Source of the DNA: an uncultured Chloroflexia bacterium
GTDB lineage: Bacteria; Chloroflexota; Limnocylindria; Limnocylindrales; CSP1-4
Direction: 5' to 3'
Length of the DNA stretch: 64,000 bases
Assembly (NCBI GenBank): GCA_963790915.1
Contig: CAWBQS010000005.1
Coordinates: 87,579 to 151,578 of the forward strand
Below are positions 840-58,959 of the stretch, one piece after another. Position 1 is the first letter of the stretch, and the number at the start of each line of letters is the position of its first letter. The notes under the pieces are model-generated. The model did not search any database. It had not been told where the DNA came from and saw nothing but the letters and a program-made list of their open reading frames with translations. The position numbers and the translations under genes are program-made.

Positions 840-2156
840 TCACGAGGAGGCTTCCGCCGCGCTCTGTCGCATCAGGGTGGCCAGGAACTCCGTATTGGAC
901 TCCGTCTTCGAGAGGCGGTTGAGCAGCAGCTCGATGCCCTCGTTGGTGCCCACCGCGCTCAGCATGCGGCGCATCGTCCAGACCATCTTGAGCACGGGCT
1001 CCTCGAGCAGCAGCTCCTCCCGGCGAGTGCCGGAGCGCTGCACATCGATGGAGGGAAAGATGCGCTTCTCGGAGAGCTTGCGGTCCAGGATGAGCTCCGA
1101 GTTGCCGGTGCCCTTGAACTCCTCGTAGATGACGTCGTCCATGCGCGAGCCGGTGTCCACCAGACAGGTGGCGATGATCGTCAGCGAGCCACCTTCCTCC
1201 AGCTTGCGGGCGGCACCGAAGAAGCGCTTGGGCGGGTAGAGGGCCACCGGGTCGATGCCGCCGGTGAGCGTGCGGCCGGAGGGCGGCAGGGCCAGGTTGT
1301 AGGCGCGCGAGAGGCGCGTGATGGAGTCCAGCAGGATGACCACGTCACGCCCGCCCTCCGTCTGGCGCTTGGCGATCTCCAGGGCCATCTCCGCGACGTG
1401 CGTGTGGTTCTCCGTGGGCTCGTCGAAGGTGCTGGAGATGACCTCGCCCTTCACGGAGCGCCGCATGTCCGTGACCTCCTCCGGGCGCTCGCCGATGAGC
1501 GCCACCATGAGGAGGATGTCCGGGTAGTTGCCGCTGATGCCGTTGGCGATGGCCTTCAGGAGCATGGTCTTGCCGGCCTTGGGCGGGCTCACGATGAGCG
1601 CACGCTGGCCCTTGCCGATGGGATTCACCAGGTTGACGAGGCGCTGGCTGAGGTTCTTGGGGTCGTTCTCGAGGTTGATGAGCTGGTAGGGGTGGATCGG
1701 GGTCAGCTCGTCGAAGTGCGGGCGGCGGCGGGCGTCGAGAGGGTCCATGCCATTGACCGTGTCGACGCGAACGAGACCCCAGTACTTCTCGCCCTTCTTG
1801 GGCGGCCTGGGGATGCCGGCCACACGGTCGCCGCCGCGCAGTCCGAAGCGGCGCACGAGGCTGGAGCTGATGTACACGTCGTCCGGGCTGGGCATGAGCC
1901 CGCGCCGACGCATGAAGCCGTAGCCGTCCTCGACGAGATCCAGGATGCCGGCCGCATAGCGCTGCATGCTGTCATCCGGCCGGCGCGGCATGCCCGGGTC
2001 GGCCGTCTCGTCGCGGGCAGCGCCGTCTTCGGCGACCTCCATGTCCGCGCCGTAGCGCTCGACATCATCTGCGTCCCGGTACTCGCGTTCCCTGGTATCC
2101 ATCGTTCGGGTGTCCGTCCTCGCGGCGTGGGGGTGCTCAGCCTGGTGAGGGCGCAC
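840..2156 (-). CDS. rho: Transcription termination factor Rho
   Basis: 438-aa ORF with an RNA-binding domain (GYGFMRRRG), Walker [18 protein letters not shown], Walker [17 protein letters not shown], and [17 protein letters not shown]. The start is either GTG 2156 or ATG 2102. Confidence 0.95.
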
Positions 2157-2489
2157 GCGCGGCGGCGCACCTGGTGGCTGTTGGGGTGAGTGCCCGTGCC
2201 GGACCTGCTAGCCGAGGACCGAGCGGATGCCGGCATGACAGCGGCGTCCAGCACCTGTGGGCTGGCACGATGGTAGCACGCACCGGGGGGCGGTCAAGCC
2301 CCGGGTGGGTTCGTGTCACCGGCCGGCGAATCTGTCACCCATAAGCGGCCAGCGACTTCATGCATTTCCTGCGGGGCGCGGCATGGGACGCCTGGCCTGG
2401 GACCCAAGGCCCCGCGCGGGGTGCCGCAGGCTTGCGGCGCATGCCCCTCGGGTGCCGCAGGCTCGCGGCGCATGCTGCGGAGCGCGCCC

Positions 2490-3152
2490 TCAGCCCTTGG
2501 CGGCGTCCGCGGTCGCCTTCGCCCAGTCGGCCTTGAACTGGCTGATGCCCTTGTCCGTCAACGGATGGTGGACCATCTGCTGGAAGACCTTGAAGGGCAG
2601 CGTGGCGACGCCCGCACCGGCCAGGGCGCCGTCGATGACGTGCCGCGGGCTGCGTACCGACGCGACGAGGACCTCCGACTCGAAGCCATGCATCTCGATG
2701 ATGGCCGCCAGCTCGCGGATCATCTCCATGCCGTCCTGGTTGATGTCGTCGAGACGACCCACGAACGGCGACAGCAACCAGGCCCCGGCCTTGGCCGCCA
2801 GGAGGCCCTGGGCGGCGCTGAAGATGAGCGTGCAGTTGGTCTTGATGCCCTCCTCGGCAAAGCGGGAGATGGCCGTCAGGCCGATCTCGCTCATGGGCAC
2901 CTTGATGACGATGTTGGGAGCGATGTGGGTGAAGGCACGGCCTTCGCGCAACATGCCCTCCAGGTCGTCGGCGATGACCTCCGCGCTGACCGGACCGGAG
3001 GTGATGGTGCAGATCTCCTCGAGGACGGATTCGTAGGAGCCGCCGCCCGCCTTGGCGAACAGGGTCGGGTTGGTGGTGACGCCGTCCAGCACGCCCCAGC
3101 TGTGCACGGTGCGGATCTCGTCGATGACGGCGGTGTCCAGGAAGAGCTTCAT
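2490..3152 (-). CDS. tal: Short-form transaldolase / fructose-6-phosphate aldolase family protein
   Basis: 220 aa. MKLFLDTA, GVTTNPTL, VIKVP, TNCTLIFS and SPFVGRLDD are the motif set of the ~220-aa class of transaldolases. Confidence 0.9.
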   Translation of the reverse strand: MKLFLDTAVIDEIRTVHSWGVLDGVTTNPTLFAKAGGGSYESVLEEICTITSGPVSAEVIADDLEGMLREGRAFTHIAPNIVIKVPMSEIGLTAISRFAEEGIKTNCTLIFSAAQGLLAAKAGAWLLSPFVGRLDDINQDGMEMIRELAAIIEMHGFESEVLVASVRSPRHVIDGALAGAGVATLPFKVFQQMVHHPLTDKGISQFKADWAKATADAAKG

Positions 3153-3363
3153 GAGGCGGGGACTCCTGCGAGTGCAGCGGGTGGCGATGACTGCTCGCGA
3201 TTGTACGTCGCCACCGGATCGCGACGGCGTGGGCGGTCCGGGTCGACCGCCGCTGAGACCGTGGTCTGTTGGACAGGGGTAGCTACACTGGTCGCGAGGC
3301 GGCTGTCGTCAGGTCGGTCGCCGTTCCCGGTATCTGGATCCCAGGTGGGTAAGGAGGATTCCG

Positions 3364-4320
3364 ATGCAGGTCCGAACACCCGTCGCCCTGTCGCTCAGCG
3401 CGCTCATCCTCGCGCTCGCGGGGGCCAGCGCCGTCTCCGCGCAGGGCGCGGCGCCGGCGGTCGGCGAGCCGGTCCCGGTCGTTGACGCCGAGGGCGTCGT
3501 CCACGGCAGCGTCACGGTCAAGGAGGTGGTCGACCCGTTCACCGGGTTCGACCCGGCAGCGCCACCGGCGGATGGCATGCGCTACATCACGATCACCGTG
3601 ACGTATGAGGCCGCGCCGGACCAGTCGCTCGACGCCCAGCCCTACCAGATCGTGCTCCAGGGCGCCAACGGGACGATCTTCTACCCGCAGTACGTGCCGC
3701 GCCCCGCGGATAGCAAGATCCCGGACCTGCAGAGCCAGCTCATGGCCCCGGACAATCGCCTCTCCGGCGTCATCGGCTACATCGTCCCGACGACGGAGGC
3801 CATCGCCAAGGTCGCCTTCTCGCCCTCCGGGGATCGCCTCAGCGACATCGCTGATCTGGGCGCGACCGAGGCACCAGCTCTCGGCGAAGCGGTCATCTAC
3901 ACCGACGCGAATGGCGCATCGGTGAGCGTCTCAGCGGCAATCATCGACCCGTTCACGGGCTTCGACCCCGCCTACCCGCCCGCCGAGGGCACGCGCTTCG
4001 TCGTGGCCGAGGCCGTCTACGAGGGCAGCGGCGATCTCCCCTACTACGCGGACCCCTGGGACATCTATCTGCGGGACAGCACGGGCCTGCTCATCGCGCC
4101 GACGAGCGTCTACGTGCCACCGGGGACCACGCCGGTGAGCCTCGAAGGCCAGACGATGAACCCTGGGGACCGAGTCTCCGGCTATGTCGGCTTCGCGGTG
4201 CCGGCCGAGATGCAGATCGCTGACGTGCTCTACTACCCCGAGTCGGGACGCGTCGTCTCATTGGGCCGAACTGGCGGTGCCGTGTCGCCGGCGGAGGCGT
4301 CACCCGGCACCGACGGCTGA
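3364..4320 (+). CDS. Secreted protein with two tandem ~150-aa domains (DUF4352-like Ig-type fold suspected)
   Basis: Shine-Dalgarno (SD) sequence AAGGAGG upstream. Signal peptide MQVRTPVALSLSALILALAGASAVSAQG. Internal duplication: VVDPFTGFDPAAPPADGMRY... and IIDPFTGFDPAYPPAEGTRF.... The family name is from memory and not verified. Confidence 0.75.
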   Translation: MQVRTPVALSLSALILALAGASAVSAQGAAPAVGEPVPVVDAEGVVHGSVTVKEVVDPFTGFDPAAPPADGMRYITITVTYEAAPDQSLDAQPYQIVLQGANGTIFYPQYVPRPADSKIPDLQSQLMAPDNRLSGVIGYIVPTTEAIAKVAFSPSGDRLSDIADLGATEAPALGEAVIYTDANGASVSVSAAIIDPFTGFDPAYPPAEGTRFVVAEAVYEGSGDLPYYADPWDIYLRDSTGLLIAPTSVYVPPGTTPVSLEGQTMNPGDRVSGYVGFAVPAEMQIADVLYYPESGRVVSLGRTGGAVSPAEASPGTDG

Positions 4321-4477
4321 CGACCGCCGGGCACCACCGACACATCATTCCGGAGCCAGGAACACCCCAGGCCTGACCAGGACCAGCTGGCCGGCTTCAT
4401 CCCGCCGGACCCGGTCGCTCACGTCCTGGTGGGCTCGCAGCCGCCCCGAACGGTGGCCCATCGGGCCGCCCCGGCAG

Positions 4478-6262
<1,785 letters not shown>

Positions 6263-7359: not shown

Positions 7360-7740
7360 GCCTGCGCGTGGTCGACGTCCGCGCGGTCGACCACGCGGAT
7401 GGGGGCTCTGGAGCCGCCAAGAACGCCCGGCGGCGGTGCCTCGAGCCTCGATCGCGCGGTCGACCACGCGGCGCCGGGGCCAGGAGCGCCGAGAACGCCC
7501 GGCGGGGGTGCCTCGAGCCTCGATCGCGCGGTCGACCACGCGGCGCCGGGGCCAGGAGCGCCGAGAACGCCCGGCGGCGGTGCCTCGAGCCTCGATCGCG
7601 CGGTCGACCACGCGGCGCCGGGGCCAGGAGCGCCGAGAGCGCCCGGCGGCGGTGCCTCGAGCCTCGATCGCGCAGTCGACCACGCGGATGGGGGCCCTGG
7701 AGCCGCAGGCAGGCCCGGCGGCGGAGCCTTGGCCCGGCGG
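7360..7740. repeat. Tandem 72-bp repeat array A (5 full units plus a partial one) with palindromic core CGCGCGGTCGACCACGCG
   Basis: GTCGAC centres at about 7371, 7386, 7459, 7531, 7603 and 7675. Units 2-4 are almost identical (gcctcgatcgcgcggtcgaccacgcggcgccggggccaggagcgccgagaacgcccggcggcggtgcctcga). Confidence 0.9.
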
Positions 7741-28104: not shown

Positions 28105-28350
28105 CGACGGCGCGGGGATGCGTGGTGCCGCGACGGCGATGGGGGGCGCGGGCGCCGACGGCACCGCCAGGCGCCGGGGATGCGTGGTCGACCGCGCGAT
28201 GGGGGGCGCACGGGCGCGCCGACGGCCGAGCGGACCGCCAGGGGCCGGGGATGCGTGGTCGACCGCGCGATCGGAGGCGCACGGGGGCCGCCGACGGCCG
28301 ACGGACCGCCAGGGGCCGGGGATGCGTGGTCGACCGCGCGATCGGGGGCG
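28105..28350. repeat. Tandem repeat array B (3 full units plus one degenerate unit, 71-bp period), same family as array A in inverted orientation
   Basis: ggggatgcgtggtcgaccgcgcgat occurs three times, with GTCGAC at about 28187, 28258 and 28329. A degenerate copy sits near 28120. Confidence 0.85.
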
Positions 28351-52596: not shown

Positions 52597-54609
<2,013 letters not shown>

Positions 54610-54745: not shown

Positions 54746-54940
54746 CTAGCGGCGCTGCCTCCGCCTCCCCCCAGACTCCCACCGGGAGCCGGTAATCAGG
54801 GCGATAAGCTCGAGACCAAGGGCCTCGAGCGTGCCAAGGAGGAGTACGGCTACGTTCTGGGGCAGGCGGACGGGCACGCGCGTGCCGTCATCACGGATAG
54901 CGATGGCGGTCAGCTGGCGCCGGCGTTCGGTCTGGCCCAT
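54746..54940 (-). CDS. 64-codon ORF (possible ilv leader peptide or small hydrophobic protein)
   Basis: ATG 54940, in frame with the tail of track ORF 54746..55243, with GAGGAG 13 nt upstream. MGQTERRRQLTAIAIRDDGTRVPVRLPQNVAVLLLGTLEALGLELIALITGSRWESGGRRRQRR. Confidence 0.3.
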   Translation of the reverse strand: MGQTERRRQLTAIAIRDDGTRVPVRLPQNVAVLLLGTLEALGLELIALITGSRWESGGRRRQRR

Positions 54941-55010: not shown

Positions 55011-55160
55011 GCACCGTCCAAGGTCCTGCCGCGCCGCTGCGATGGTCCGGGCGTTCCTGACGTGACGGCATCGGCTCGTGGGCCCACAGTGGCACGAGCA
55101 GCCACGTCGGGCAGGCGCAGCACGCCGATCAAGCCTGGCCCAGGCGCCCACATGCCACGA

Positions 55161-55478
55161 TCAGGTGGGAACGCAGACTTCCACCCAGGAGTCTTCCACC
55201 TGCCGCAGCGCGATGCGTCCGGGGGTGCCGTCACTGAGGACACACCGTGACTCGGTGATCAACTGCTGCGCGCTTCTGACTACCGGCTCCATCTCGATCT
55301 TCGCCTGCTGCCGCCAGCGCGCCAGGAACCGGGCCACGAAGCCGTCGACCGCCTGGCGGGACTCCAGCTTGGCTTCCTCTCGGGCGCGGCGATGCGAGAG
55401 GTGACGCTCGCTGGCGGCAGACTCCGCGGCATGCACGGCCTGATGGCTCTGGTACCCCCCCACAGGGTTCAGGTTCAT
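55161..55478 (-). CDS. Hypothetical 105-aa protein
   Basis: Internal ATG of track ORF 55161..55559, preceded by GAGGAGG. MNLNPVGGYQSHQAVHAAESAASERH.... No recognisable family. Confidence 0.4.
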   Translation of the reverse strand: MNLNPVGGYQSHQAVHAAESAASERHLSHRRAREEAKLESRQAVDGFVARFLARWRQQAKIEMEPVVRSAQQLITESRCVLSDGTPGRIALRQVEDSWVEVCVPT

Positions 55479-55664
55479 CCGAGCCTCCTCGATGGCTGGG
55501 GGGGCCACTCGGGGGCGGTCCCCGTGCCCGAGGTGACCATCGTCCCACCACGTGGCCACACGCCGGGTTCAGCTCCTCGTTCACAAGATACGCCGGGTTG
55601 TCAATGGTCTTCCGGCCCAAAATGCGTTACACATGTCACAGCCTGGTGGAGTGGCCGACGCCCC

Positions 55665-55850
55665 GGGCCCCTCGATCGCGTGGTCGACCGCGCGGATGCT
55701 GGCCCGGGGTCCGCGGCTGACGCTACGCACGGCTCCTCGACCCTCGATCGCGTGGTCGACCGCGCGGATGCTGGCCCGGGGTCCGCGGCCGACGCCAGGC
55801 CGGGCTCCTCGACCCTCGATCGCGTGGTCGACCGCGCGGATGCGCCATCG
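55665..55850. repeat. Tandem repeat array C (3 units, 71-72 bp), same family as arrays A, B and D
   Basis: ccctcgatcgcgtggtcgaccgcgcggatgctggcccggggtccgcgg... occurs three times, with GTCGAC at about 55683, 55755 and 55826. Confidence 0.85.
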
Positions 55851-55897
55851 ATCCCACATAAGCCGCAGTGCAGTGCCCGAGGATAGGGTTCGATTTC

Positions 55898-56737
55898 ATG
55901 ACGCGGCCGCATCCACCGAGGACCCGGTTCGAGCGGCACGCGGCCGACGCCGTCCGGCAGGCGAGGCGCGCGCTGGCCGCGGACCTTCGCAACGGACGGG
56001 AGGACGCGGGCATCAGTCAGCGCCGACTCGCCGCAGTGGCGGGCGTCAGTGACGCGACCATCAGGGCCATCGAGCGCGACGCCGTCGAACCGTCGCTCCA
56101 GGTGGTGGCCCGCGTGGCCACGGCGCTCGGTATGACTCTCGGCGTGCGTCTCTATCCAGGTACGGGTCCGCCGATCCGTGACCACATCCAGGCCGCCATG
56201 CTGGCGGCGCTGCTGGCCATCCTCCACGCACGCTGGCGAGGTCGACCGGAGGTTCCGGTCCATCGCCCGGTCCGAGGCGTAATCGACCTCGTCCTTGACG
56301 CGGCCAGGGAGCCGCTGCTGGCCTGCGAGGCGCATTCAGAGCTGCGACGCCTCGAGCAGCAGATGCGCTGGTTGCGCGCGAAGGCGGACGCGCTGGCTGA
56401 GAGCGGTGGAAGGCGTTCCACGGCGGTCCTGGAGAGGCGCTACACCACAGGCGTCGAGGAGGGTCGTGCCGCCGCTGGCGTCCCTCCCGGCGCAGCCACG
56501 CCGGGAGGAGAGGTCGGGCGGCTCCTGCTGCTGCGTTCGAGCGTGAAGGCGCGCGCTGTGGTCGCCGAATACGCCGACCTCGTGGCGACGGCATATCCAG
56601 CGCGCAGCCGGGACGCCTACGCGGCCCTCACGACCGAGGCGCATTGGCCCGGCGACGCACTCCTCTGGTGCACCGTCGAGGGCGGCCGCGCGACCGTCCT
56701 CGTGCACCCACCACGTGGCATCGTCGTCGGTCGCTGA
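55898..56737 (+). CDS. XRE/Cro-type helix-turn-helix protein with ~200-aa C-terminal domain of unknown function
   Basis: HTH: GISQRRLAAVAGVSDATIRAIERDAVEPSLQVVARVATALGMTL. The C-terminal IDLVLD...LLACEAHSELRRLEQ may be a degenerate PD-(D/E)xK motif (weak). GTG 55868 is an alternative start. Confidence 0.7.
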   Translation: MTRPHPPRTRFERHAADAVRQARRALAADLRNGREDAGISQRRLAAVAGVSDATIRAIERDAVEPSLQVVARVATALGMTLGVRLYPGTGPPIRDHIQAAMLAALLAILHARWRGRPEVPVHRPVRGVIDLVLDAAREPLLACEAHSELRRLEQQMRWLRAKADALAESGGRRSTAVLERRYTTGVEEGRAAAGVPPGAATPGGEVGRLLLLRSSVKARAVVAEYADLVATAYPARSRDAYAALTTEAHWPGDALLWCTVEGGRATVLVHPPRGIVVGR

Positions 56738-56874
56738 TACTGGGATGCTCGCCCGGCGTGTCGTGGGACAGAACAGGCTAGCTTCATCGAGGTCGCTGAT
56801 CCTGGGCTGGTGCCGTTTCCGTCGGCCGCCCGATACACCGCTATGGGCGGCACCTGACTCGATCATTCGCGTGC

Positions 56875-57365
56875 GTGCTGGCGGGCATCGGTGGCCCTAC
56901 CGCCCAGGCAGCGTGGTCGCCGCGTGGATTCGCGCCAGAGGCCGCGTGCTGGCGGGCATCGGTGGCCCTACCGCCCAGGCAGCGTGGTCGACCACGCGGA
57001 TCCGCGCTCAAGGGCCGGGGCGGGCGGCATGGGTGGCCCTTCAGGCCACGGTCGCGTGGTCGACCACGCGGATCCGCGCCCAGAGGCCGCCGCTGGCGTC
57101 ATGGGTGGCTCTTCAGCCCACGGTCGCGTGGTCGACCGCGTGGATCCGTGCCCAGGCGCCGGGGCTGGCGCCGGGCAGACCTCTTCGGCCCACGAACGCG
57201 TGGTCGACCGCGCGGATCCGCGCCCACGCGCCGGGGCTGGCGCCGGGCAGACCTCTTCAGCCCACGGTCGCGTGGTCGACCGCGCGGATCCGCGCCCACG
57301 CGCCGGGGCTGGCGCCGGGCAGACCTCTTCAGCCCACGGTCGCGTGGTCGACCGCGCGAACCCGC
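56875..57365. repeat. Tandem repeat array D (7 units, 72-bp period), same family
   Basis: Core centres at about 56916 (degenerate GTCGCC), 56987, 57059, 57131, 57203, 57275 and 57347. Units 5-7 are nearly identical. A separate 22-bp x2 repeat (cgccgcggtggcctgagggctg) follows at 57366-57415. Confidence 0.9.
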
Positions 57366-57493
57366 GCCGCCGCGGTGGCCTGAGGGCTGCGCCGCGGTGG
57401 CCTGAGGGCTGCGCCGCGGCGGCCACGAGCCCGGTGGCCGCGTCGGCGCACGCCCAGCGCCGAGCCCGTCGGCGCCTCTGCTACGCTCCGAGG

Positions 57494-58959
57494 ATGTCCG
57501 AACCCGCCGCGGCCAGCGGGGCCGCCTCCCCGCGCACGCTCGTCCAGAAGATCTGGGACGACCACGTCGTCCTGCAGGAGCCCGGTGCGCCGACCGTCAT
57601 CGGCATCGACCTGCACCTCGTCCACGAGGTCACCAGCCCGCAGGCCTTCGAGGGCCTGCGGCGCCGCGGCCTCACGGTGCGCCACCCGGAGCGGACGGTG
57701 GCCACGGCGGACCACTCCACCCCCACGCACGACCGCTCGCTGCCCATCCTGGACCAGCAGGCCAGCTTCCAGCTCGCCAAGCTGGCCGCCAACTGCGCGG
57801 AGTTCGGCGTCCCGCTCTACGCCCTGGGCTCGGACCGCCAGGGCATCGTCCACGTCATCGGCCCGGAGCTTGGTCTCACCCAGCCGGGCATGACCATCGT
57901 CTGCGGCGACTCCCACACCGCCACCCATGGCGCCTTTGGGGCCCTGGCCTTCGGCATCGGCACCAGCGAGGTGGAGATGGTGCTGGCCACGCAGACGCTG
58001 CTGCAGCGGCCGCTGCGCACCTACGAGGTCCGCGTCGATGGCCGCCTGGCGCCCGGCGTCACGAGCAAGGACATCATCCTCAACCTCATCAGCCGCATCG
58101 GCGTGGGCGGCGGCACCGGCCACGTCTTCGAGTTCACCGGCGAGGGCATCCGCGCGCTGACGATGGAGCAGCGCATGACCATCTGCAACATGTCCATCGA
58201 GGGTGGCGCACGGGCCGGGCTCATCGCCCCGGACGACACCACCTTCGAGTACGTCGCCGGCCGACCCCACGCCCCAGCGGGCGCCGACTTCGACGCTCGC
58301 CGTGGAGCGCTGGCGCCGCCTGCCCTCGGACCCCGGCGCGGTCTACGAGAAGTCGATCGTCATCGACGCGGCTGCGCTGCAGCCCATGATCACCTACGGC
58401 ACCAACCCGGGCATGGGCATGGGCATCACGGACCGCGTGCCCAGCCCGGCAGGATGCCACGGACGACTCGTCGCGGCGCACCCTGGAGAAGGCCCTCGAC
58501 TACATGGGCCTGGCGCCCGGTGAGCCGCTGCTCGGCCACAAGGTCGATACCGTCTTCATCGGCTCCTGCACGAACAGCCGCATCAGCGACCTGCGCTCGG
58601 CGGCCGCGCTCTTCGAGGGCCGCAAGGTCGCTGAGGGCGTGCGCGTCATGGTCGTGCCTGGCTCGCAGACCGTGAAGGCCCAGGCGGAGCGCGAGGGCCT
58701 GGCCGACGTCTTCCGCGCCGCCGGCGCCGATTGGCGCGAGGCCGGCTGCTCGATGTGCATCGCCATGAACGGCGACCAGGGCGCCCCGGGCGAGTACATC
58801 ATCTCGACGAGCAACCGCAACTTCGAAGGCCGCCAGGGCAAGGGCGCCCGCACCTTCCTGGCCTCGCCGCTGACCGCCGCCGCCACCGCCCTGGCCGGCG
58901 TCATCACCGACCCGCGACCGCTCGTCGATCGCGTCGCGACCGTCCTCGGGAGCAGGTAA
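57494..58959 (+). CDS. leuC: 3-isopropylmalate dehydratase large subunit; two apparent frameshifts (near 58297 and 58452)
   Basis: [54 protein letters not shown], then [38 protein letters not shown] in the second frame and [14 protein letters not shown]...[10 protein letters not shown] in the third. Confidence 0.88.

Follow-up and report, generated by a model that had tools for sequence, protein, structure and literature searches.

Between ilvB and leuC of an uncultured bacterium of the Limnocylindrales (Chloroflexota), a gene encoding a helix-turn-helix (HTH) protein is flanked on both sides by tandem arrays of a repeat that is also dispersed in the same genome. In this work, we analyzed the gene and its arrays in a window of 64,000 nucleotides, which corresponds to C5:87579-151578 (contig C5) of the metagenome-assembled genome (MAG) G000 (3.32 Mb, 5 contigs, 71% GC, 85% complete), and compared them with their counterparts in other genomes. 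Hereafter, G000 is the source genome, other G numbers are compared genomes, L numbers are loci and P numbers are metagenome contigs; L033 is a second assembly of the same species as G000 (99.65% identical). From ilvB (52597-54609, minus strand) to leuC (ATG at 57494), the locus holds a 64-aa open reading frame (ORF), the orphan gene orf105, array C, the HTH gene (55898-56737, plus strand), array D and a 22-bp repeat. Literature searches returned no description of this protein family or of these repeats, and the comparative results presented below suggest that the protein and the repeats probably form one undescribed system.

Repeat arrays and their spacing

Array C (55669-55843, plus strand) consists of three 72-bp units (Tandem Repeats Finder (TRF) period 72, 2.4 copies, 95% matches), and array D (56873-57368, plus strand) of seven 72-bp units of three subtypes (TRF 56877-57368, period 72, 6.8 copies). 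The 72-bp unit contains an 18-bp palindromic core, CGCGTGGTCGACCGCGCG. The array C cores lie at 55677-55694, 55749-55766 and 55821-55838, the last one beginning 77 bp upstream of the HTH-gene ATG (55898) and ending 59 bp before it; those of array D lie at 56981, 57053, 57125, 57197, 57269 and 57341, the first unit, near 56909, being degenerate. Array D begins about 140 bp past the HTH stop (56737) and ends 126 bp short of the leuC ATG. A first-pass annotation of this DNA had given the coordinates, unit counts (3 and 7) and distances correctly, as judged by TRF and a core scan, and the array D subtypes that it distinguished by eye (units 1-2, 3-4 and 5-7) are seen in the oriented unit listing. 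The stepwise local amplification that it proposed for array D fits the copy-number variation found between samples, with one more unit in L033 and one fewer in a wastewater-metagenome contig of run X2, for which short-read assembly may have collapsed repeats. As the unit count differs between assemblies, the arrays behave as variable-number tandem repeats (VNTRs). The 22-bp direct repeat (57368-57424, plus strand, 2.6 copies) adjoins array D just upstream of a conserved -10-like TACGCT of leuC.

Allowing up to three mismatches, CGCGTGGTCGACCGCGCG has 35 strand matches in the window, where 1.46 would be expected and shuffled sequences (n=100) had no more than 5. The window contains two further arrays of the same family: array A (7380-7729, minus strand; G000 C5:94958-95281), far from the HTH gene and with 5 cores, and array B (28154-28350, plus strand), with 3 cores and one degenerate copy, whose orthologous site in G049 is short and empty. 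In the related genomes G052 and G010, 17-34 kb separate the sequences that flank array A here, which places this array at a rearrangement junction or synteny breakpoint. Over the whole of G000 we counted 55 core sites in 17 clusters, 13 of which are arrays. The core-to-core spacing is 72 bp in 23 of 38 cases, the others including 62, 82, 49 and 53 bp. Once oriented, the units share the core, usually preceded by GAT, and their spacers are alike inside one array and different between arrays, some arrays being plainly related to each other. The arrays occupy convergent, tandem and divergent intergenic regions, three of them lying between convergent genes. As tandem units of 40-100 bp that lie between genes at several loci and vary in copy number, they have the characters of dispersed minisatellites of the kind known as mycobacterial interspersed repetitive units (MIRUs). 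Contig C5, which makes up 14.6% of G000 and carries the HTH gene, holds 9 of the 17 clusters (p = 2e-4). The dnaA gene (C3:730 kb) is distant from the arrays, and a distribution centred on the origin or the terminus was sought in G000, where the GC skew was too weak and the contig order was not established. A coding role of the 72-bp units was rejected, given that they show no codon asymmetry and that variants of 62, 73 and 83 bp exist. G000 also contains a second dispersed repeat, unrelated to the 72-bp family, with a 51-bp unit, CCCCCGTCGCCAAGGCCGCCGTCGTCGGCGCCGCCATCACCCCCGGCCCAT, in about 2.5 copies at C1:9917, C3:925922, C4:17151 and C5:479136, two of these four loci being near contig ends.

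The spacing between cores is itself regular. The 149 core-to-core spacings of G000, G007, G013 and the distant species G057 cluster at 52, 62, 72-73, 83, 93 and 105-108 bp, for which the best step is 10.5 bp (Rayleigh R = 0.80, a value that none of 2000-5000 random sets attained). When each distinct spacing was counted once per array, R was 0.70, and again no random set of 2000-5000 was that high. The helical repeat of B-DNA is 10.5 bp. This match suggests that the cores face the same side of the DNA, presumably as for cooperative binding.

The HTH protein and its C-terminal domain

The HTH gene is single-copy in G000 and encodes 279 aa, with the HTH at residues ~25-82 and a PD-(D/E)xK-like domain at ~92-279 that includes a variable linker (167-205). 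The Cro/C1-type HTH recognized in the first-pass annotation matches Pfam HTH_3 (residues 40-91, 3.8e-11, 43.3 bits for a cut-off of 23), and no model covers the remainder of the protein. HTH_31 matches as well (38.5 bits, cut-off 27), and both the profiles and a five-helix fold place this part of the protein in the XRE/Cro-C1 group (PF01381, PF13560). Its best Foldseek and hmmsearch matches are ClgR, DdrO, C.BclI, HipB and SinR, the closest solved relative being ClgR, with 40% identity over the HTH.

For the C-terminal domain, neither Pfam, NCBIfam, PADLOC nor PHROGs contained a matching model, and a profile search of PDB sequences matched only the HTH part of the protein. As the full-length Foldseek search was swamped by HTH matches, the C-terminal domain was modelled and searched alone. 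The AlphaFold2 (AF2) models had a predicted local distance difference test (pLDDT) score of 87.5 for the full protein and of 87.3 for residues 92-279, with a predicted template modelling (pTM) score of 0.82 for the latter. In the AF2 model of residues 92-279, the predicted fold is alpha-beta-beta-beta-alpha-beta (H5-17, E23-30, E36-43, E49-55, H61-77, E115-122), that is, the core fold of the PD-(D/E)xK superfamily. The top neighbours of the domain in the PDB and BFVD are nearly all PD-(D/E)xK enzymes, at weak scores (E 0.01-0.5, TM <=0.41); they include Shedu SduA, the R2 restriction-like endonuclease, SfsA, McrC, NucS/EndoMS, Hjc, Mrr, MmcB and a Cas4-like protein. The model places E118 on beta1, D130 on beta2 and E144 on beta3, and all three are invariant in the family, as judged in 42 sequences, together with D95, G127, S147, R150, R151, E153, Q155, R157 and W158. 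Hence, for the degenerate PD-(D/E)xK motif that had been suggested from IDLVLD and CEAHS, the predicted fold and the invariance of D130 and E144, which lie in these two segments, argue in favor, but the weak structural matches and the residue found at the catalytic-lysine position do not. We conclude that the C-terminal domain is predicted to be PD-(D/E)xK-like, with an intact acidic triad and putative catalytic function.

The family alignment is conserved along its full length, save for the insert at 167-205. Since the C-terminal domain begins near residue 90 in full-length matches, which are of about 250 aa, the architecture appears to be fixed. The family is narrow and found mostly in Limnocylindrales, with 478 clusters at 90% identity; the C-terminal domain alone yielded 304 clusters at 50% identity among 1.84 billion proteins.

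Distribution of the gene and the arrays

Within the genus, three sets were compared, namely 24 genomes for the G000 core, 41 for the pattern GTCGAC-N50-80-GTCGAC-N50-80-GTCGAC and 20 in which the ilvB-leuC slot was read. The G000 core was at background level in all 24 genomes first tested. The GTCGAC pattern occurs 77 times in G007, 25 in G000 and 19 in G013, and 0-12 times in the other 38 of the 41 genomes. These three array-rich genomes all carry an ortholog of the HTH gene in the ilvB-leuC slot, next to arrays of their own core (CGCGTGGTCGACCGCGCG in G000, GGTCGACATGTCGACC in G007 and G013); the chance that all three would fall among the 8 gene carriers of the 20 slots read is 56/1140 = 0.049. 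The G007 ortholog has 6 cores upstream and 4 downstream, and its core palindrome, GGTCGACATGTCG(A/G)CC, is present in 111 copies in G007, in 16 copies in G013 and practically nowhere else. In G013, three GGTCGACATGTCG-type cores lie directly upstream of the ortholog. The start of the nearest core precedes the start codon by 77 bp in G000, 84 bp in G007 and 87 bp in G013, and G008, which is without arrays, has a single related palindrome, GGTCGATCGATCGACC, at -161.

Away from the gene, the arrays are not shared in position. Six G007/G013 arrays distant from the gene have both flanks mapping to adjacent, array-free G000 sequence, and at the positions of G000 arrays B, F, G and H the closest relatives have short sites devoid of repeats; among mappable arrays, only those at the HTH gene occupy a shared position in G000, G007 and G013. 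Insertion borders and target-site duplications were looked for by comparing filled and empty sites of the closest relatives, which did not align (~80% coding identity). At the G007 locus (L005, G007:C35), the last ~50 bp of the HTH gene, including the stop, recur in two further copies in the downstream array (2200-2642, 108-bp period), indicating that this array grew by local duplication that included the 3' end of the gene.

Beyond the genus, we surveyed 80 loci encoding homologues of the HTH protein, from different MAGs and other species, and scored as arrays TRF hits scoring 80 or more, with a period of 18 bp or longer and 2.3 or more copies, adjacency meaning no more than 500 bp from the gene. 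This check, of a kind called for in the first-pass annotation, yielded 37 arrays within 500 bp of the gene (77.5 kb in all) and 16 in the other 578 kb, or 0.48 versus 0.028 arrays per kb, a difference of about 17-fold per base. Counting intergenic regions only, an array was present in 23 of 96 gene-adjacent regions and in 14 of 237 others (Fisher p = 9e-6). This count used a crude ORF mask, and about 9 of the 14 'other' regions are gene-adjacent ones split by spurious ORFs, so that the contrast is understated. Tandem arrays are 3-17 times denser beside the family gene than elsewhere in the 80 loci. A gene-adjacent array is present in 28 of these loci, and all 13 arrays with a period of at least 50 bp adjoin a family gene. 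Periods recur, with 72-73 bp in L064, L065, L098 (from G058), L121 (from G057) and L136, and 62 bp in L099 and L101. In G057, a 23-bp core of unrelated sequence, CGATCCATTCGCTGGCAGCAAAC, is present in 39 copies (control 0) on at least 13 contigs, mostly with a 72-bp period; 5 copies lie upstream of the family gene and 7 downstream, making these the largest of the G057 arrays listed. In G058, 5 of the 9 core copies sit at the family gene. The recognition helices (SDATIRAIE in G000) differ wherever the cores differ and are almost the same in the two pairs with a common core type, G007/G013 (SHSTLLALE and SHSTLLTLE) and L064/L065. This covariation of helix and core fits co-evolution, and shared descent could also produce it. 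Altogether, the family appears to be coupled to arrays of ~62-, 72- or 83-bp units, each with a species-specific core of 16-23 bp.

The slot in which the gene resides is conserved in its borders and variable in its content. The order ilvB, small ORF, variable segment and leuC is kept in each of the 18 genus loci long enough to show it, and the variable segment ranges from 0.17 to 5 kb. The HTH ortholog occupies it in G000, G007, G008, G013, G049, G044 and G046, a remnant is left in G009, and the gene is missing in 12 of the 20 genus genomes read. The metagenome contigs P0003, P0009, P0015 and P0040 carry the ortholog in the same ilvBN-leuCD slot, with 52-67% identity. Other cargo includes a Gfo/Idh/MocA oxidoreductase in most species, a PD40 propeller in G010, a glycosidase in G054 and an IS21-like transposase ORF in G008 (L028, G008:C6). 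In G052 and G002 the slot is only ~180 bp and retains the ilvB-side promoter and the leuC -10-like TACGCT; from this, the extra cargo of G000 spans roughly 55054-57470. The first-pass annotation had read the segment at 54.7-57.5 kb as a possible inserted module of slightly higher AT content. Since orthologs keep the same slot in other species, the HTH gene is not a fresh insertion, and we read it as an old, dispensable resident of a plastic slot. The compositional claim holds for 54.6-55.6 kb only (GC 0.665-0.69, ~0.71 in the flanks), but array D is GC-richer (0.74-0.79); GC at third codon positions is 0.81 in the HTH gene versus 0.92 in ilvB. Among genus members the HTH protein is 42-68% identical, versus 72-92% for ilvB (in G049, 49% and 89%), and thus appears to evolve fast and out of step with its neighbours. 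Family members of less than 50% identity occupy other genomic contexts.

The remaining features of the interval are as follows. The 64-aa ORF (54746-54940, minus strand), which begins MGQTERRRQLTAIAIRDDGTRVPV, is conserved upstream of ilvB and marks the left border of the slot. Of 20 genus loci retrieved, 19 contain it and the remaining one is truncated by a contig end, and a promoter-like TGGACA-18-TAGAGT (55010-54981) is conserved upstream of it. The ORF had no match in Pfam, NCBIfam, PADLOC or PHROGs; it could encode a small protein or be a leader of the ilvBN operon. The same four collections had no match for orf105 (55161-55478, minus strand, 105 aa), which is part of the extra cargo and is divergent from the HTH gene across array C. 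A search of 5.8 billion proteins yielded only four clusters of orf105 homologs. Contigs of two metatranscriptomes (peat, freshwater sediment) cover 55287-55551 with ~97.6% identity. We rejected orf105 as a partner gene, as none of the other genomes examined has it next to the HTH ortholog, and one homolog occupies the slot of another genome without the HTH gene. Compared with the intact 487-aa gene of L033, leuC of the window has single-G insertions at 58295 and 58452 that break the frame after about residue 267; these are probably assembly errors rather than marks of a real pseudogene. Finally, a 39-bp tandem repeat (three copies, 76% matches, 54415-54531) lies inside the 5' end of the ilvB frame and would encode a repeated N-terminal extension before the thiamine pyrophosphate (TPP) domain, which starts near residue 100.

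A candidate protein-array system, its alternatives and its relatives

The first-pass annotation had proposed the HTH protein as the factor that recognises, spreads or regulates through the repeats. Support for the protein as a repeat-linked factor is substantial but circumstantial and comparative: the homologues are repeat-associated far above background and the arrangement recurs in G007, G013 and G057, but several orthologs are array-less. On balance, we lean slightly towards the view that the HTH gene belongs with arrays C and D to one cognate protein-array system, in which the HTH would contact the DNA, assembly would be cooperative and phased, and the gene would be autoregulated. The activities that we infer for the protein, namely binding, oligomerisation, regulation and nuclease action, would be combined as follows. 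The protein would bind the core as a dimer through its HTH, and the whole-turn spacing of the cores would align bound dimers on one face of the DNA, where the C-terminal domain could join them into a larger complex. The arrays flanking the gene would be its 'home' arrays. In three species the nearest core is found some 80 bp ahead of the start codon, which would suit autoregulation, and array D lies directly upstream of the leuC promoter. In G000, G007, G013 and G057, units with the same core may have been seeded at other intergenic sites, at which the arrays would then grow and shrink by unequal recombination. The least certain step is that the nuclease-like domain might cut or nick DNA and so drive seeding and amplification. 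The full proposal, in which each XRE-HTH/PD-(D/E)xK protein recognises a co-evolving core, assembles on phased home arrays, and amplifies and seeds arrays via its nuclease-type domain, is one that we advance tentatively and consider somewhat doubtful.

If the cognate system is real, it would constitute a rare instance of a phased intergenic array family with an identified candidate binder. Its confirmation would account for one class of VNTRs in a lineage that is abundant in soil and freshwater but uncultured, and might provide new DNA binders or nickases that are sequence-specific and come with natural variants of specificity. The candidate has a readable recognition helix that changes with the repeat core and a conserved nuclease-type active-site constellation, which makes the proposal directly testable with one protein of ~30 kDa and a synthetic 72-bp array.

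Several observations weigh against a cognate system, or against parts of it. At the threshold used, 52 of the 80 family loci are without an adjacent array. Occurrence of the gene without repeats in relatives had been named in the first-pass annotation as evidence against its proposal, and this is in part what we see: at least six same-slot orthologs (G008, G049, G044, G046, P0003 and P0009) have no adjacent palindromic arrays, and the array-less orthologs include the closest two (67% and 64% identity) among the homologs whose context could be read. Conversely, G001 and G012, which are ortholog-free, carry other long-period non-coding tandem repeats (2 and ~7 per 400 kb, respectively), so that arrays as such do not require the HTH gene, but both genomes do carry distant paralogs of the family. 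One of the repeats of G012 is a 51-bp array family of its own (C19:87874-88300), which stands beside several other long-period non-coding arrays. Most G000 arrays are far from the HTH gene, and a distant paralog in G000 (C3:1836532-1837053), of the same architecture, has only a weak 48-bp x 2.2 repeat close by. The dyad symmetry of the core is clear in G000, G007 and G013 and not significant in other species, for which the inverted-repeat test did not discriminate in GC-rich sequence; we dropped general dyad symmetry of the family cores for this reason. The regular spacing could partly stem from a few ancestral unit lengths. As regards the C-terminal domain, its similarity to nucleases in Foldseek is weak, and position 146, that of the catalytic lysine, is H in this protein and Q in most other family members. 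ExQ variants of the PD-(D/E)xK motif do occur, as in BglII.

A first alternative to the cognate system is passive co-location, that is, autonomous minisatellites like MIRUs or repetitive extragenic palindromic (REP) sequences, selfish or structural, that merely persist in the long and weakly constrained intergenic DNA around the HTH gene. The slot is plastic, with long intergenic DNA, an insertion sequence and other accessory genes, and some of the enrichment could therefore be passive: its length varies from 0.17 to 5 kb, its cargo differs by species, many orthologs lack arrays, ortholog-free genomes have other tandem-repeat families, the G000 arrays lie in convergent, tandem and divergent contexts, and variation in copy number is ordinary VNTR behaviour. 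However, the enrichment at the gene persists when it is compared with other intergenic regions of the same loci, in four species the core of the gene-side arrays is the one dispersed in that genome, with such arrays both before and after the gene in three of the four, only gene-flanking arrays are at shared positions in mappable cases, and the distance of the nearest core from the start codon is conserved. We regard passive co-location as unlikely, though as the most probable of the alternatives.

It is less probable still that the gene and the arrays are, or were, a mobile element, in which the arrays would be subterminal sites comparable to the ends of Tn7 or Mu, the PD-(D/E)xK domain the cutter and the dispersed arrays non-autonomous derivatives. 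The arrays do lie on both sides of the gene, with upstream and downstream arrays in inverted orientation, like transposon ends, in L101 (4613-4950 and 5754-5977) and G057 (C87:34335-36526); moreover, divergence is much more rapid in the HTH protein than in its neighbours, and the more distant family members (<50% identity) are found in other contexts. Against such an element, the flanking arrays are in direct orientation in G000 and G007, orthologs have kept one syntenic slot across species, G000 has a single gene copy and target-site duplications are not assessable because intergenic DNA does not align between species. We know of no autonomous transposase made solely of an HTH and a PD-(D/E)xK domain.

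We give little credence to an ordinary XRE regulator of ilvBN and leuCD, with a ligand-sensing or oligomerising C-terminal domain and with arrays that are unrelated or modulate promoter spacing. Long-standing synteny with ilvBN and leuCD, the location between two divergent core promoters and an HTH most like that of the regulator ClgR are all compatible with it, but the absence of the gene from 12 of 20 slots indicates that it is dispensable for ilv/leu control, family members are also found away from ilv/leu, and neither the same core at a dozen other loci nor the family-wide enrichment would be explained. A role in RNA, with the palindromic cores as REP-like hairpins that terminate or stabilise transcripts, is very improbable: the G000 core could form a 7-bp stem with a 4-nt loop by sequence reading, a metatranscriptome contig covers part of array C and three G000 arrays lie between convergent genes, but the whole window has no Rfam family at gathering thresholds, a search of 54.6-57.6 kb revealed no terminator-like site, the core of G057 does not form a hairpin, arrays such as C and D also lie upstream of genes, and helical-repeat spacing is a property of duplex DNA, not of RNA.

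The cognate protein-array system that we favor can be set beside several known ones. Clustered regularly interspaced short palindromic repeats (CRISPR) likewise show a short, partly palindromic repeat alternating with a fixed-length segment, with a period of 60-75 bp; they were rejected here because the spacers within an array are homologous (75-100% alike) and the unit lengths step by 10.5 bp, and no cas-like genes were seen beside the arrays. The type IIE/IIF restriction enzymes SfiI, NgoMIV and Cfr10I have a PD-(D/E)xK fold and need two or more sites. The HTH protein is similar to them in its predicted PD-(D/E)xK-type core, with conserved acidic residues on beta1-beta3, in its candidate palindromic targets and in possible multi-site cooperation; it differs in that there is no methyltransferase partner, the lysine of the motif is H or Q, the structural E values are weak and recognition would lie in a separate N-terminal HTH. 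In mycobacteria, whose genome is likewise rich in GC, MIRU/VNTR loci are intergenic tandem repeats of 40-100 bp, scattered over the genome and variable in copy number between strains, and in these respects resemble the arrays described here. To our knowledge, however, a conserved palindromic core is missing from MIRUs, and they are not known to flank the gene of a cognate protein. Besides, MIRUs are oriented with operons and translatable, whereas the periods of 62, 73 and 83 bp exclude coding here.

In architecture, the closest parallel is with centromere arrays. Plasmid RK2 has dispersed KorB operators. The sopC site of F consists of 12 units of 43 bp, each with a 16-bp inverted repeat that is bound by SopB (PMC3597684). 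The likeness lies in tandem units that each hold one dyad site, in the adjacent gene for an HTH protein and in the possibility of dispersed copies with a regulatory function. The differences are that the present arrays are chromosomal, flank the gene on either side, recur at a dozen or more further loci, and would be bound by a protein with a predicted nuclease fold rather than a ParB fold; furthermore, the G000 ilvB-leuC slot (small ORF, orf105 and HTH gene only) contains no gene for a ParA/SopA-type ATPase.

In logic, the closest parallel is with the genes for REP-associated tyrosine transposases (RAYTs), which are single-copy, mostly vertically inherited, syntenic and flanked by a repeat dispersed in the same genome (PMC3116915; PMC3337134; bioRxiv 10.1101/2021.07.10.451892). 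Here, too, a gene is flanked by a genome-dispersed repeat, in G000, G007, G013 and G057, and in both systems the repeats are species-specific and some gene copies have no repeat population. The proteins, however, are of different classes. RAYTs are Y1 (HUH) transposases of the IS200/IS605 type, and the present protein is XRE-HTH plus PD-(D/E)xK-like, with solely HTH profiles matching and a nuclease-like C-terminal fold, and thus not a Y1 HUH transposase. The repeats differ as well, being head-to-tail units of ~72 bp with one core each, helically phased, in tens of copies per genome, whereas REP sequences number hundreds and form inverted doublets in REPINs. By analogy, then, REP/RAYT systems appear to be the nearest counterpart in logic and sopC/SopB-type centromere arrays the nearest in architecture, membership in both failing on the defining protein or partner. 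If confirmed, the HTH gene would be a second, mechanistically different host-resident gene that maintains its own repeat population, and together with its arrays a functional counterpart of RAYT/REPIN from another enzyme class.

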